NCBI GenBank assembly: GCA_045644765.1
Contig: JAZRHM010000013.1
Span: 11,780 to 75,779, forward strand
Source of the DNA: Alphaproteobacteria bacterium
GTDB lineage: Bacteria > Pseudomonadota > Alphaproteobacteria > RF32 > CAG-239
Direction of reading: 5' to 3'
DNA length: 64,000 nucleotides
This document shows positions 1-28,898 of this stretch, in pieces. The notes below the pieces were generated by a model. It was not told the DNA's origin. It searched no databases and saw only the letters and a list, made by a program, of their open reading frames with translations. The position numbers were made by a program, and so were the translations under genes. The first letter of the stretch is position 1. The number at the start of each line of letters is the position of its first letter.

Positions 1-157
1 GTTTATCATTACCGCATTTTAAAACAATGTTTGAACCATGGATACCAATTCTGTCTGCTACACCTTTAGCAACAACTTCATAATTTTCACCTTCAACATT
101 AAAAAGTTGATACTTTAATGAAGATGAACCTGAATTTAAAACTAAAATTTTTTTCAT
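1..157 (-). CDS. ackA: acetate kinase, N-terminal part (gene runs off the window start)
   Basis: Minus-strand translation from the ATG at 155-157 gives [52 protein letters not shown], the conserved acetate kinase N-terminus (LVLNxGSSSxKY). It lies 23 nt downstream of pta on the same strand. Confidence 0.85.
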
Positions 158-180
158 TTATATAAGTTCCTTTTTAAAAA

Positions 181-25340: not shown

Positions 25341-28300
25341 TTATATCTTCTTTATTTGAGCCATATGTTCCAACAAAGAACGTTTTTCATGTACATTTTC
25401 TTGTGCTTTATTAAGCAATGCCTCATATCGCTCCGGATTGAGTTTATTTACAATCTGGAAACGTGTTTCATTAGACATATATTCAGCCAAAGGTTTTGTA
25501 GGCGCTTTTGAATCAAGTGTTAAAGGCGCTAAACCTTTTTGGGTATTATCCGGATTATATCTGTACAACGGCCAAGCACCTGTTTCTACAGCATCTTTTT
25601 GATGACTTAAACCATCTGCCAAATTAAACCCTTGGGCAATACAATGAGAATATGCAATTATAAGTGACGGACCATCATAAGCCTCTGCCTCATTTAAGGC
25701 TTTAATAAGTTGCATATCATTAGCACCAAACGAAACTTGTGCAACATAAACATTGCCATATGACATTGCAATTAAGCCTAAATCTTTTTTCGGTAAAGAT
25801 TTTCCTGCTGTTGCAAATTTTGCTGAAGCTCCCATTGGTGTTGCTTTAGACTGTTGACCGCCGGTGTTTGAATATACCCCGGTATCCAAAACCAAAATAT
25901 TGACATTTTTGCCCGATGCTATCGCATGATCCAAGCCACCAAAACCAATATCATAAGCCCAACCGTCGCCACCTAAAATCCATAAAGATTTTTTAACTAG
26001 ATAATCTGCCAAATCACTAAGATGAGCTGATTTTTCGGTATTCATATCAGTTAATTTTTCACGTAAAGCTTTAACATTTTGACGTTGAGCATCTATCTGT
26101 TCATCATTTTCTTGTTCATTTGATAAAATTTTCTGAACTAACTCTACTCCAATTTCATCTTTTAATTCTTCCAGCAAGTTTTTAGCAAATTCTGTTTGTT
26201 GATCAATTGAAAAACGCATTCCCAAACCAAACTCTGCATTGTCTTCAAACAAAGAGTTTGCCCAAGCCGGACCGCATCCGTTATCATCTTTGGTGTAAGG
26301 TGTTGTCGGTAAATTACCTGAATAAATTGAAGAACAACCTGTAGCATTGGCGATTACCATTCTATCACCAAAGAGTTGTGTTAACAATTTGATATAAGGA
26401 GTTTCTCCACAACCGCCACAAGCACCGGAATATTCAAACAACGGACGAATAAGTTGTGTTGTTTTCGGCAAGTTTTTAACAACATCTGCCCTTTTAACAT
26501 AAGGAATAGTTTCAAAAAACTTCCAATTTGCAATTTGTTCTTCCATATGTTTTTCAACATGATCCATATTAATTGCTTTTTTGCTTAAATCTTCTCTGTT
26601 TTTAGCAGGACAAGCAGATACACACAAACCACATCCCGTACAATCTTGAGGAGAAATTTGCAGCATAAATTTCTTTCCGGCAAATTCTTTACCCTTATAA
26701 TCTGCCGTTTTTAATGTTGCAGGAGCATTTTTAAGCTCTTCTTCAGATGCAACTTTCATTCTGATTACACCATGAGGACAAACCAAAGAACACTTACCAC
26801 ATTGAATACAAGTGTTTTCATCCCATACCGGAATTTCGGTTGCAATTGAACGTTTTTCATACTGCGTAGTTCCGGTCGGATATGTACCGTCAACAACATC
26901 TTTAAACGCTGACACAGGTAACAAATCGCCATTACCGGCAATAATTTCTGCAGTAAACTTCTTAACAAATTCCGGAGCTTGTGCAGGAACCGGCGATAAA
27001 CGATTAAATGAAGATGTAACGTTTAACGGATAAGCAACTTCATGCAAATTTTCTAATGTAGCATCAACTGCTTCATAGTTCTTTTTAACAATTTCTTCGC
27101 CTTTTTTAGAATATGTCTTTTTAATTGCTGCCTTAATTTGAGCAATTGCCTCATCTTTAGGCAGAATATTAGAAATTGCAAAGAAGCATGTTTGCATAAC
27201 CGTATTAATACGCTGTCCCATACCGGTTTTTCTTGCTACGTCAATTGCATTAATGGTATAAAACTTTAGTTTTTTTGCAATAATTTGTTCTTGAACTTCA
27301 ACCGGCAAATGGTTCCACACTTCATCAGCCGAATATGGAGCATTAAGCAAGAATGTTGCACCATCTTTTGCTATTTTTAATATATCAATCTTATTCATAA
27401 ATGAGAACTGGTGACACGCTACAAAATCTGCCTTGCTGATAAGATATGCCGATTTAATCGGATTATCGGAAAATCTTAAATGAGAAGTCGTCATCGATCC
27501 TGATTTACGAGAATCGTAAACAAAATATCCTTGACCATATTTTCCGGCATCTTCTGCTATAATTTTGATAGAGTTTTTATTTGCACCAACCGTACCATCT
27601 GCTCCAAGTCCGTAGAACACAGCTCTAACAACATCTTTAGCTTCTGTATCCAAATCATCACTAAATGGCAAAGAGGTATGATTTATATCATCAATAATTC
27701 CTACAGAAAAGCCATTGATTGAGTTTGAACTTGCCCCATTATCATAAACAGCTTTAACCATATTTGGGGTAAATTCTTTTGAAGATAAGCCGTAGCGCCC
27801 CCCTAAAACTTTTGGCATAGACTTAATTTTGCCGGTTGCAAAAGCTTTAGAAAGTGTCGCAACAACATCCAGATATAACGGTTCACCGGTTGCGCCCGAT
27901 TCTTTTGTTCTGTCTAATACGGATACGGTCCTTACTGTACTTGGCAATGCTTTAACAAAACTTTCTTCCGGAAACGGTCTATACAAACGAACTTTTAACA
28001 CACCAACTTTTGCACCGTTTGCATTAAGATAATTCACGGTTTCTTCAACGGTTTCGGCGCCTGACCCCATAATTACTATAACGTCTTCAGCATCTTTGGG
28101 TCCGACATAATCCACAACATTATATCTGCGTCCGGAAATGGCAGAAAATTTATCCATTTCTTCCTGAACAATGTTTTCAACTTTTTGATAATACGGATTA
28201 GAAGCCTCTCTTCCTTGGAAAAACACATCAGGATTTTGCGCAGTTCCTCTAATAACGGGTTTTTGAGGATTAAGAGCATTTTTAGCCACAAACGTATAAT

Positions 28301-28898
28301 CAATTCCATCAAGCATAGAGCGTAAATTGTCATCGGAAAGAACTTTAATTTTTTTAATTTCATGAGATGTTCTGAAACCATCAAAAAAGTGCATAAACGG
28401 AACTCTTGCTCTTAATGTTGATGTTTGCGCAATGGCTGCCATATCGTGTGCTTCTTGCACAGAATTTGAACAAAGCATTGCAAAACCGGTTTGTCTGCAA
28501 CCCATAACGTCAGAATGATCACCAAAAATTGATAAAGCATGATAAGAAAGAGAGCGTGCCGCCACATGCATAACAAACGGTAAAAGCTCGCCGGCAATTT
28601 TATACATATTAGGTATCATCAAGAGCAAACCTTGAGATGCCGTAAAAGTTGTAGTTAAAGCTCCCGCCTGAACGCTACCGTGACAAGCTCCGGCTGCTCC
28701 TGCTTCTGATTGCATTTCTTGAACCTCGGGCACAACACCCCATATATTTTTTTGCTTTGCAGAAGACCAAGCATCAGCCCACTCACCCATCGGAGATGAA
28801 GGTGTAATCGGATAAATAACACAAACTTCATTCATACGATGAGCAACAGATGCTGCTGCTTCATTACCATCCATCATTTTAAATTTTACATCTGACAT
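25341..28898 (-). CDS. nifJ: pyruvate:ferredoxin (flavodoxin) oxidoreductase, single-polypeptide PFOR
   Basis: 1185 aa. N-terminus MxxxDGNEAAASVAHRMNEVCVIYPITPSS. Two ferredoxin-type 4Fe-4S motifs (CIQCGKCSLVCP and CTGCGLCVSACP). TPP-binding domain GGDGWAYDIGFGGLDH. C-terminal domain conserved. Confidence 0.95.
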   Translation of the reverse strand: MSDVKFKMMDGNEAAASVAHRMNEVCVIYPITPSSPMGEWADAWSSAKQKNIWGVVPEVQEMQSEAGAAGACHGSVQAGALTTTFTASQGLLLMIPNMYKIAGELLPFVMHVAARSLSYHALSIFGDHSDVMGCRQTGFAMLCSNSVQEAHDMAAIAQTSTLRARVPFMHFFDGFRTSHEIKKIKVLSDDNLRSMLDGIDYTFVAKNALNPQKPVIRGTAQNPDVFFQGREASNPYYQKVENIVQEEMDKFSAISGRRYNVVDYVGPKDAEDVIVIMGSGAETVEETVNYLNANGAKVGVLKVRLYRPFPEESFVKALPSTVRTVSVLDRTKESGATGEPLYLDVVATLSKAFATGKIKSMPKVLGGRYGLSSKEFTPNMVKAVYDNGASSNSINGFSVGIIDDINHTSLPFSDDLDTEAKDVVRAVFYGLGADGTVGANKNSIKIIAEDAGKYGQGYFVYDSRKSGSMTTSHLRFSDNPIKSAYLISKADFVACHQFSFMNKIDILKIAKDGATFLLNAPYSADEVWNHLPVEVQEQIIAKKLKFYTINAIDVARKTGMGQRINTVMQTCFFAISNILPKDEAIAQIKAAIKKTYSKKGEEIVKKNYEAVDATLENLHEVAYPLNVTSSFNRLSPVPAQAPEFVKKFTAEIIAGNGDLLPVSAFKDVVDGTYPTGTTQYEKRSIATEIPVWDENTCIQCGKCSLVCPHGVIRMKVASEEELKNAPATLKTADYKGKEFAGKKFMLQISPQDCTGCGLCVSACPAKNREDLSKKAINMDHVEKHMEEQIANWKFFETIPYVKRADVVKNLPKTTQLIRPLFEYSGACGGCGETPYIKLLTQLFGDRMVIANATGCSSIYSGNLPTTPYTKDDNGCGPAWANSLFEDNAEFGLGMRFSIDQQTEFAKNLLEELKDEIGVELVQKILSNEQENDEQIDAQRQNVKALREKLTDMNTEKSAHLSDLADYLVKKSLWILGGDGWAYDIGFGGLDHAIASGKNVNILVLDTGVYSNTGGQQSKATPMGASAKFATAGKSLPKKDLGLIAMSYGNVYVAQVSFGANDMQLIKALNEAEAYDGPSLIIAYSHCIAQGFNLADGLSHQKDAVETGAWPLYRYNPDNTQKGLAPLTLDSKAPTKPLAEYMSNETRFQIVNKLNPERYEALLNKAQENVHEKRSLLEHMAQIKKI

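Follow-up and report, generated by a model that had tools for sequence, protein, structure and literature searches.

The window, a 64-kb stretch of alphaproteobacterial DNA, carries predicted genes for pyruvate:ferredoxin oxidoreductase (PFOR), pyruvate phosphate dikinase (PPDK), phosphate acetyltransferase (Pta) and acetate kinase (AckA). The question is whether these form an anaerobic energy module in the genome of an intracellular bacterium, as the original prediction held, or are the ordinary genes of a known anaerobic lineage. Our reading is that the window most probably comes from the chromosome of an uncultured, genome-reduced gut alphaproteobacterium of the RF32/CAG-239 lineage, a strict or near-strict anaerobe in which native, vertically inherited genes would make up the usual fermentative end.

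Identification of the four genes

The four genes that had been predicted were all recovered, with their motifs (Table 1).

Table 1. Coordinates of the pyruvate and acetate genes and of the hairpin that follows PFOR
Feature	Description	Position	Strand	Basis
ackA	First 52 codons of predicted acetate kinase; runs off the left edge of the window	1..157	-	NCBIfam E=1.8e-11
pta	Predicted class-I phosphate acetyltransferase, 334 aa; first gene of pta-ackA	181..1185	-	TIGR00651
ppdK	Predicted pyruvate phosphate dikinase, 882 aa	14944..17592	-	TIGR01828, motifs; monocistronic by geometry
Hairpin	Terminator-like, directly 3' of the PFOR stop codon	25278..25323	-	20-pair stem, 6-nt loop, T8 tail
nifJ/por	Predicted single-chain pyruvate:ferredoxin (flavodoxin) oxidoreductase, 1185 aa	25341..28898	-	TIGR02176, motifs; monocistronic

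The PFOR protein scores 1797.6 bits against TIGR02176 in NCBIfam, where the cut-off is 911, and its residues 6-1180 align to positions 1-1166 of the 1167 in the model, a full-length match that covers the fused alpha-gamma-delta-beta domains. It also has full-length matches in the PDB to the enzymes of Moorella thermoacetica (6CIN, 1353 bits) and Desulfovibrio africanus (1B0P, 1261 bits). Two ferredoxin-type CxxCxxCxxxCP motifs are present, CIQCGKCSLVCP at residue 697 and CTGCGLCVSACP at 753, as are the cysteines of a third [4Fe-4S] cluster (CGGCGE at 827 and ATGCS at 852) and the thiamine-pyrophosphate motif GDG...D, found as GDGWAYDIG at 977; all of these motifs align with the Moorella enzyme. 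These features confirm a single-chain PFOR/NifJ at the level of sequence, with pyruvate as the predicted substrate and ferredoxin or flavodoxin as the predicted acceptor. An exact-protein look-up found no record of this PFOR, and matches with 80-97% identity occur in at least 80 species-representative gut alphaproteobacterial genomes.

PPDK is a full-length, three-domain protein with 1340 bits against TIGR01828 (NCBIfam cut-off 843) and 1144 bits over residues 3-879 against the Clostridium symbiosum enzyme in the PDB (1KBL). The phospho-histidine motif GGMTSHAAVVARG starts at residue 456, and GTNDLTQ at 773 and SCSP, with the C-terminal Cys, at 860 are also present. Its homologues fall into at least 120 clusters at 89-99% identity, the named ones being Alphaproteobacteria metagenome-assembled genomes (MAGs), and none of the other genes is as conserved as ppdK. 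Its synonymous-codon usage differs from that of the window pool to roughly the extent seen for the two ribosomal-protein genes, and it is probably highly expressed. PPDK is common in Alphaproteobacteria, including Rickettsiales, so the "anaerobic-type" label that had been given to this enzyme does not hold.

Pta exceeds the TIGR00651 cut-off (366 bits against 311 in NCBIfam). It aligns only to the C-terminal positions 389-705 of the 708-position class-II model, and the N-terminal regulatory domains of class-II enzymes are absent. In the PDB, Pta chains of 329-340 aa align to it with 259-296 bits, the class-I chain 4E4R being the one at 296. Its homologues are 70-99% identical, and all that have a source name are labelled as Alphaproteobacteria MAGs. 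The 52-aa AckA fragment scores 35.7-43.8 bits against the NCBIfam models for acetate kinase (family TIGR00016/PF00871), below cut-offs that are set for whole proteins, and is identical at 52/52 residues to the N-terminus of a 392-aa PF00871 AckA in another assembly, where that gene lies downstream of a pta that is 99% identical to ours.

Genomic arrangement

The ackA ATG lies 23 nt past the pta stop codon, with a ribosome-binding-like AAAGGAA site, and the gene order AI-2E transporter, hypothetical protein, pta, ackA is kept in relatives at 77% identity. The pta-ackA pair is an operon, and it is the sole conserved linkage among the four genes. Neither ppdK nor pta occurs within 10 kb of PFOR in any of 80 related PFOR loci (0/80), and in the closest MAG PFOR and ppdK are on different contigs (18 and 20) with different neighbours. 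PFOR, PPDK, Pta and AckA have no conserved gene cluster, and the word "module" does not apply to them in the genomic sense.

In the window, PFOR and ppdK each lie between a divergent and a convergent gene, divergent upstream and convergent downstream in the case of ppdK, and the terminator-like hairpin is located between PFOR and the convergent rpsI. These opposing orientations, together with the PFOR terminator, argue against co-transcription of PFOR, ppdK and pta-ackA, which would instead form three transcription units, dispersed between housekeeping genes. When the neighbours of PFOR were clustered across the 80 loci, they were housekeeping genes only (Sua5, M29 and M17 peptidases, GcrA, MotA/B and a histidine phosphatase), and no redox partner was seen among them.

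Lineage and lifestyle

There are no tRNA, tmRNA or rRNA genes in the 64-kb window and no Rfam family reaches its gathering score, so the window offers no RNA marker for taxonomy. The closest relatives of PFOR, Pta, PPDK and the housekeeping genes are uncultured Alphaproteobacteria MAGs at 70-99% identity, from the gut of human, mouse, chicken, rabbit and ruminants. The best 80 PFOR loci all come from gut, rumen or faecal MAGs labelled Alphaproteobacteria or "proteobacterium", and they include CAG:495, Candidatus Scatocola, which NCBI taxonomy places under Rhodospirillaceae incertae sedis, and "uncultured Azospirillum sp." MAGs, whose PFOR is 83% identical to that of the window. GcrA is found in 21 of these 80 loci. 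The closest sequenced genome to the window is the MAG GCA_045613125.1 (JAZLAM01). One relative, RGIG4207, has been classified as Alphaproteobacteria; RF32; CAG-239; 51-20 and is 97.85% complete (PMC8199421 supplement). Judging from the closest relatives and this one classified genome, the window appears to belong to the RF32/CAG-239 lineage. To our knowledge, none of these gut RF32 organisms has ever been cultured.

The original prediction had described a "reduced, intracellular-style genome". The first half of this description stands, as the mean genome size in RF32 is 1.59 Mb and the capacity to make amino acids has been lost (PMC8199421). The second half does not, given relatives that are MAGs from vertebrate gut contents and a window rich in envelope genes. 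The window has a coding density of 94% and carries PBP1A, DacA, RlpA, MltB, AmiC and an M23 peptidase for peptidoglycan, LolCDE, MsbA, YhdP and a BepA-like protease among other envelope functions, and a PhoR-type kinase, a MATE pump and an AI-2E transporter. Several large unannotated proteins are also encoded. An N-terminal RNase E fragment had no exact protein on record, and the in-frame TGA in rne raised the possibility of an alternative genetic code. We rejected this because TGA ends two other genes in the window, and prfB retains its classical CTT-TGA autoregulatory frameshift site.

A rival explanation is that the organism, like Rickettsiales, lives obligately inside the cells of an anaerobic protist or an arthropod, and that a laterally acquired, ferredoxin-linked acetate module had replaced its pyruvate dehydrogenase (PDH) and TCA cycle. 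This would fit the low GC of the window (0.32), the large unannotated proteins and the reduced RF32 genomes with their lost biosynthesis, and a dependence on other rumen microbes has been raised as a possibility (PMC8992543). However, the closest relatives are abundant MAGs from vertebrate stool and gut contents rather than Rickettsiales, the peptidoglycan, Lol, MsbA, efflux and two-component genes are complete at that high coding density, relatives have MotA/MotB, and the genes in question have native GC3 and codon use, are conserved across the lineage and diverge together with housekeeping genes. We regard this explanation as largely refuted and its probability as very small. The window does share with Rickettsiales and Holosporales its class, low GC, a reduced genome and PPDK. 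In contrast to their PDH and TCA cycle, its pyruvate oxidation would be anaerobic, by way of PFOR, and unlike them it is rich in envelope, efflux and signalling genes and has relatives with motility stator genes. Searches with PFOR, Pta and PPDK returned no close relatives among Rickettsiales or Holosporales. From gene content and the distribution of samples, the organism is probably free-living. The anoxic, host-associated niche that had been proposed is supported, and Azospirillum sp. CAG:239 is reported to have no terminal oxidase at all (PMC6431628).

Origin of the genes

Tests for lateral acquisition had also been proposed, along with a comparison of codon usage and GC with housekeeping genes. 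The composition of the genes is native: the GC3 values of pta (0.224), ppdK (0.238) and PFOR (0.245) compare with a window mean of 0.231 +/- 0.028. PFOR diverges in step with housekeeping genes. In the genome of one near relative (locus L001), PFOR is 97% identical to ours, prfB 95%, and pbp1A and yhdP 91% each, and its MAG has a 99% identical ppdK and the same synteny from rpsI to lolCE; in a distant one (L080) the values are 80% for PFOR, 83% for rplM and 85% for rpsI. Recent lateral transfer of PFOR, ppdK or pta was rejected on these grounds of native GC3 and codon usage and of co-divergence with housekeeping genes: lineage-wide conservation combined with native composition leaves no sign of recent acquisition.

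An older event is harder to judge. PFOR, and perhaps pta-ackA, may have passed from Firmicutes-type anaerobes into the RF32 ancestor and been inherited vertically since. PFOR phylogenies are patchy, the top structure match of PFOR is Moorella ahead of Desulfovibrio, and that of PPDK is Clostridium symbiosum. On the other hand, there is no compositional signal and no mobile-element context, and few PFORs are in the PDB, so the best PDB match says little about origin. We consider such a transfer possible, though somewhat doubtful, and it is compatible with vertical inheritance within RF32/CAG-239 and with the present function that we propose.

Direction of the pathway and electron sink

In the fermentative direction, PPDK would interconvert PEP and pyruvate, PFOR would oxidise pyruvate, giving acetyl-CoA and CO2 and reducing ferredoxin, Pta would convert acetyl-CoA to acetyl-phosphate, and AckA would yield acetate and ATP by substrate-level phosphorylation. 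The enzyme assignments behind this predicted route are supported. Since all four enzymes are reversible, we infer the direction of flux. We also infer the electron acceptor, the sink and the lifestyle.

The opposite, assimilatory direction would suit an acetate-rich gut, with AckA and Pta activating acetate, PFOR acting as a pyruvate synthase fed by reduced ferredoxin and PPDK supplying PEP for gluconeogenesis. PPDK is usually gluconeogenic in Alphaproteobacteria, and in the window it is extremely conserved and has a codon departure about as large as that of the ribosomal-protein genes. Two rumen MAGs, one RF32 and one Rs-D84, have no genes for degrading cellulose, hemicellulose or pectin, which also agrees with assimilation, although lactate-fermentation genes occur in rumen Alphaproteobacteria MAGs (PMC8992543). 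Assimilation is further disfavoured by the lack of an evident source of low-potential reductant, by the glycogen phosphorylase that adjoins PFOR in the closest MAG, by the pta-ackA operon, which is the classical ATP-yielding branch, and by the published description of CAG:239-type genomes as H2-evolving fermenters with [FeFe]-hydrogenase (PMC4967309). We think net assimilation unlikely. A smaller reading, suggested by the conservation and codon departure of ppdK, is that PPDK could replace pyruvate kinase as an ATP-conserving, PPi-dependent step of glycolysis in these bacteria.

In the fermentative route, reduced ferredoxin would most likely be re-oxidised by an [FeFe]-hydrogenase, by analogy with the CAG:239-type genomes in the literature. 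We scanned the window and ~1.6 Mb of sequence flanking PFOR, pta or ppdK in relatives. Neither contained ferredoxin, flavodoxin, hydrogenase or Rnf genes, and the motifs for the [FeFe]-hydrogenase H-cluster and for small 2x[4Fe-4S] ferredoxins matched only the ferredoxin domain of PFOR itself. These loci were chosen as flanks of the three genes, so this negative result says nothing about whole genomes. In gut metagenomic alphaproteobacteria, PFO is reported to occur "invariably" with [FeFe]-hydrogenase, HydEFG and a short ferredoxin (PMC4967309).

A far-reaching idea is that the PFOR of this lineage, with the [FeFe]-hydrogenase reported in sister genomes, could be an ancient, vertically inherited trait of Alphaproteobacteria that has a specific relationship to the PFO and hydrogenase found in anaerobic eukaryotes. 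If this were true, hydrogenosome-type metabolism would go back to the alphaproteobacterium from which mitochondria arose. For the hydrogenases, this has already been published as a hypothesis (PMC4967309). We would give the idea as a whole, PFOR included, only a slim chance.

Comparison with known systems and significance

Compared with the PFOR, PPDK and Pta structures of clostridial-type fermentation (6CIN, 1B0P, 1KBL, 1TD9/4E4R), the window proteins have the same architectures, full-length alignments, all cofactor and catalytic motifs and the same predicted chemistry. The differences are the host, which is an alphaproteobacterium, and the arrangement, with dispersed genes of which only pta and ackA are linked. 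Also comparable are "Azospirillum sp. CAG:239/CAG:260" and "Acetobacter sp. CAG:977/CAG:267" (PMC4967309, PMC6431628), which are of the same habitat and class and also have reduced genomes. These genomes are described as those of strict anaerobes with no terminal oxidases and with PFOR invariably present (PMC4967309 2016; PMC6431628 2019; Degli Esposti et al.). The window organism would belong to another genus or species group, one richer in AT, as its GC of 0.32 compares with a median of 0.41 in the relatives' loci. Its hydrogenase, maturases and ferredoxin were not seen in the 64 kb of the window.

PFOR with [FeFe]-hydrogenase, HydEFG and ferredoxin and without terminal oxidases was already published for Azospirillum sp. 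CAG:239 and its kin. The contig would belong to a lineage of probably free-living anaerobes where this gene set is ordinary, an outcome that the original prediction had itself named as its refutation. PFOR, Pta and PPDK are each conserved across the lineage, and the claim that the set is remarkable is not supported. In literature searched for RF32 with PFOR, hydrogenase or acetate kinase, we found no paper that reconstructs the metabolism of RF32 itself. The lineage is widely sampled and the route is standard and partly described, which makes the finding an ordinary one, and the window adds nothing new to what is known of the lineage.

Two cautions follow for work of this kind. An intracellular symbiont is not to be concluded from low GC, unannotated giant proteins and the name "Alphaproteobacteria", and related genes that lie close together in a small genome are a module only if the neighbourhood is conserved. 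The window represents a further member, at species level, of the uncultured gut Alphaproteobacteria with reduced genomes and an anaerobic life. RF32/CAG-239 itself retains some interest, both in gut ecology and in the debate over how Alphaproteobacteria live without oxygen.

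Identity and arrangement of the genes

The four enzymes named in the original prediction, acetate kinase (AckA), phosphotransacetylase (Pta), pyruvate phosphate dikinase (PPDK) and pyruvate:ferredoxin oxidoreductase (PFOR), are correctly identified and placed, with NCBIfam scores above the cut-offs for the three complete genes, matches to solved structures, and sequence motifs. PFOR scored 1353 bits against the Moorella thermoacetica structure 6CIN and 1261 bits against Desulfovibrio africanus 1B0P, and has two CxxCxxCxxxCP motifs, CGGCGE, ATGCS and GDGWAYDIG. PPDK scored 1144 bits against the Clostridium symbiosum enzyme of solved structure and carries GGMTSHAAVVARG and SCSP, and Pta reached up to 296 bits against class-I Pta chains of solved structures (~330 aa). 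The 52 AckA residues in the window match at every position the N-terminus of a 392-aa acetate kinase from another assembly, where it follows a pta 99% identical to the one here.

Features in the window and in loci of related genomes (L numbers)
Feature	Position	Strand	Evidence or remark
ackA, N-terminal 52 residues, cut by window edge	1-157	minus	acetate kinase, E=1.8e-11 (NCBIfam)
pta	181-1185	minus	TIGR00651, 366 bits, cut-off 311 (NCBIfam)
190-aa protein	14300-14872	plus	no family match
ppdK	14944-17592	minus	TIGR01828, 1340 bits, cut-off 843 (NCBIfam)
2040-aa ORF	17796-23918	plus	HELGH motif
PFOR	25341-28898	minus	TIGR02176, 1798 bits, cut-off 911; ~whole 1167-position model (NCBIfam)
250- and 858-aa ORFs	29107-32519	plus	unannotated
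prfB	37101-38200	minus	+1 frameshift site
RNase E	42388-44886	plus	in-frame TGA at 43189-43191
PFOR synteny breakpoint, window	25117-25341 and 58719-63550
PFOR synteny breakpoint, L001 (closest MAG)	13614-23555
190-aa homologues, L005	6659-7822		two tandem copies
190-aa homologue, L006	9203-9736
190-aa homologue, L009	8189-8722
190-aa homologue, L074	9185-9697
GcrA/MotA/MotB examples, L061	2895-3428 and 4322-4978
GcrA/MotA/MotB example, L057	3658-4473

As a gene cluster, the predicted "module" reduces to a pta-ackA operon, in which the genes are 23 nt apart; relatives with 77% Pta identity keep this order and the upstream neighbours (a hypothetical protein and an AI-2E transporter). A PFOR search of GTDB r232, with a single genome for each species, gave 459 related stretches, and in the best 80 of these neither ppdK nor pta occurs within 10 kb on either side of PFOR (0/80). 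In the closest metagenome-assembled genome (MAG), GCA_045613125.1, ppdK (99% identical) is on contig JAZLAM010000020, which keeps the window order rpsI-rplM-giant ORF-ppdK-mltB...lolCE, while PFOR (97%) is on JAZLAM010000018, between a GNAT gene and glycogen phosphorylase. In the window, ppdK is flanked by one divergent and one convergent gene, and PFOR by convergent rpsI and a divergent ORF, with a terminator hairpin (20-bp stem) directly 3' of its stop codon. The back-of-envelope chance of three specified loci falling within 29 kb of a 1.6-Mb circle is ~1e-3, for a set picked post hoc from many central-metabolism genes. Conservation of neighbourhood, the decisive test for a cluster, fails.

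Other observations in the neighborhood

In four relatives, homologues (26-33% identical) of the 190-aa protein divergent from ppdK immediately precede PFOR; together they form a small protein family that recurs beside pyruvate-metabolism genes. The sole recognisable feature of the 2040-aa ORF is an N-terminal M48-like zinc-protease segment (aa 42-140); a Pfam search at E<=0.1 found nothing in the remaining ~1900 aa, and the closest MAG has a 2027-aa counterpart in the same place beside ppdK. The 250- and 858-aa ORFs between PFOR and the GNAT gene have weak MORN/RHS-like repeat matches. The closest MAG lacks them and has the GNAT gene right next to PFOR; the pair is an insertion that varies between strains, and its GC3 is native.

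The position of PFOR coincides with a break in synteny. On its 3' side the closest MAG has glycogen phosphorylase, a TolC-like OEP, OmpA and then mutS-phoR-MATE, and in the window rpsI-rplM abut it and mutS-phoR-MATE is 30 kb off; the more distant relatives L089 and L090 have the order ppdK-HK-mutS-rplM-rpsI. This points either to frequent rearrangement in the lineage or to a mis-join in one of the assemblies.

One TGA, in an acidic, low-complexity insertion of the S1 domain, breaks the RNase E gene into two ORFs of the same frame (267 and 504 aa). TGA does terminate genes in this genome (3/46 stops), which leaves a nonsense mutation, a site of read-through or an error in sequencing as explanations of the break; an exact-protein look-up of the N-terminal fragment found no record elsewhere. 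The classical programmed +1 frameshift site of prfB (AGGAGG ... CTT TGA; first ~23 codons in the other frame), a known feature, shows that RF2 recognises UGA as a stop codon.

Source lineage and composition

The best 80 PFOR loci (80-97% identity) are all from MAGs titled Alphaproteobacteria or "proteobacterium", including "Proteobacteria bacterium CAG:495" and "uncultured Azospirillum sp.", and come from human stool (HGM, UMGS, MGYG-HGUT, Hadza), mouse (MGBC), chicken (Candidatus Scatocola), rabbit, roe deer, sheep, yak and cattle rumen (RUG, RGIG). Pta homologues form an unbroken range from 99% to 70% identity and PPDK homologues span 99% to 89% among the matches listed, every named one being "MAG: ... 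[Alphaproteobacteria bacterium]". Housekeeping genes point to the same lineage, diverging in step with PFOR: prfB 95%, pbp1A 91% and yhdP 91% in the closest MAG, rplM 83% and rpsI 85% in L080, and lolCE 72% in L039. GcrA, a cell-cycle regulator of Alphaproteobacteria, is in the PFOR flanks of 21/80 relatives' loci and MotA/MotB-plug stator genes in 17/80, which suggests that this uncultured gut lineage is motile and has a cell-cycle regulator of the Caulobacter type. RGIG4207 (L010; PFOR 84%) is classified as Alphaproteobacteria; RF32; CAG-239; 51-20, and is 97.85% complete (Xie et al. 2021 supplement, PMC8199421).

The window has a GC of ~0.32 and a coding density of 94%. GC3 of pta (0.224), ppdK (0.238) and PFOR (0.245) is within one SD of the window mean (0.231 +/- 0.028), and the codon-usage distance of PFOR to the rest of the window is typical (0.078); that of ppdK (0.184), near rplM (0.215) and rpsI (0.178) in size, is read as expression-linked. 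Given this native composition and the lineage-wide conservation, recent lateral acquisition is unsupported.

Lifestyle and the probable fermentative route

A reduced genome was correctly predicted: in the order RF32, 38 high-quality genomes average 1.59 Mb and have lost amino-acid biosynthesis (Xie et al., PMC8199421); for the reduced functional repertoire of rumen RF32 and Rs-D84 MAGs, incomplete reconstruction and genome reduction have both been weighed (PMC8992543). The "intracellular-style" part does not hold. Within its 64 kb the window encodes a complete set for the synthesis and remodelling of peptidoglycan (PBP1A, DacA-type carboxypeptidase, RlpA, MltB, AmiC, M23 endopeptidase), LolCDE, MsbA, YhdP, a BepA-like protease, a DsbD-like protein, a PhoR-type histidine kinase, a MATE pump and the AI-2E transporter; with the relatives' MotA/MotB and gut origin, this repertoire essentially excludes an intracellular symbiont, despite the small genome.

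Under GTDB convention, the family CAG-239 takes its name from the genome CAG:239. Human-gut metagenomic alphaproteobacteria (Azospirillum sp. CAG:239/260, Acetobacter sp. CAG:977/267) have [FeFe]-hydrogenases, HydE/F/G maturases, a short ferredoxin and, "invariably", PFO, and CAG:239 reached 11.6% of the reads from a single stool sample (Degli Esposti et al. 2016, PMC4967309). Azospirillum sp. CAG:239 has been classed as a strict anaerobe missing all terminal oxidases (Degli Esposti et al. 2019, PMC6431628). The family therefore offers a candidate for the electron sink that the prediction left unseen, although the window and ~1.6 Mb of relatives' flanks contain neither hydrogenase signatures nor small ferredoxins.

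Sugar or glycogen (glycogen phosphorylase adjoins PFOR in the closest MAG) would yield PEP, which PPDK would interconvert with pyruvate; PFOR would form acetyl-CoA, CO2 and reduced ferredoxin, Pta acetyl-phosphate, and AckA acetate and ATP, with ferredoxin regenerated by H2 evolution. As all four enzymes are reversible, they could run in the assimilatory direction in an acetate-rich gut, the chief functional alternative, which we consider unlikely. The fermentative route is the most likely; what the genes are and how they are arranged is established, and flux direction, ferredoxin partner and sink are inferred. The observation and its biochemical reading were sound, but the context that made the set seem remarkable was wrong: this is a lineage of probably free-living anaerobes, the gut RF32/CAG-239 lineage, in which such genes are ordinary.
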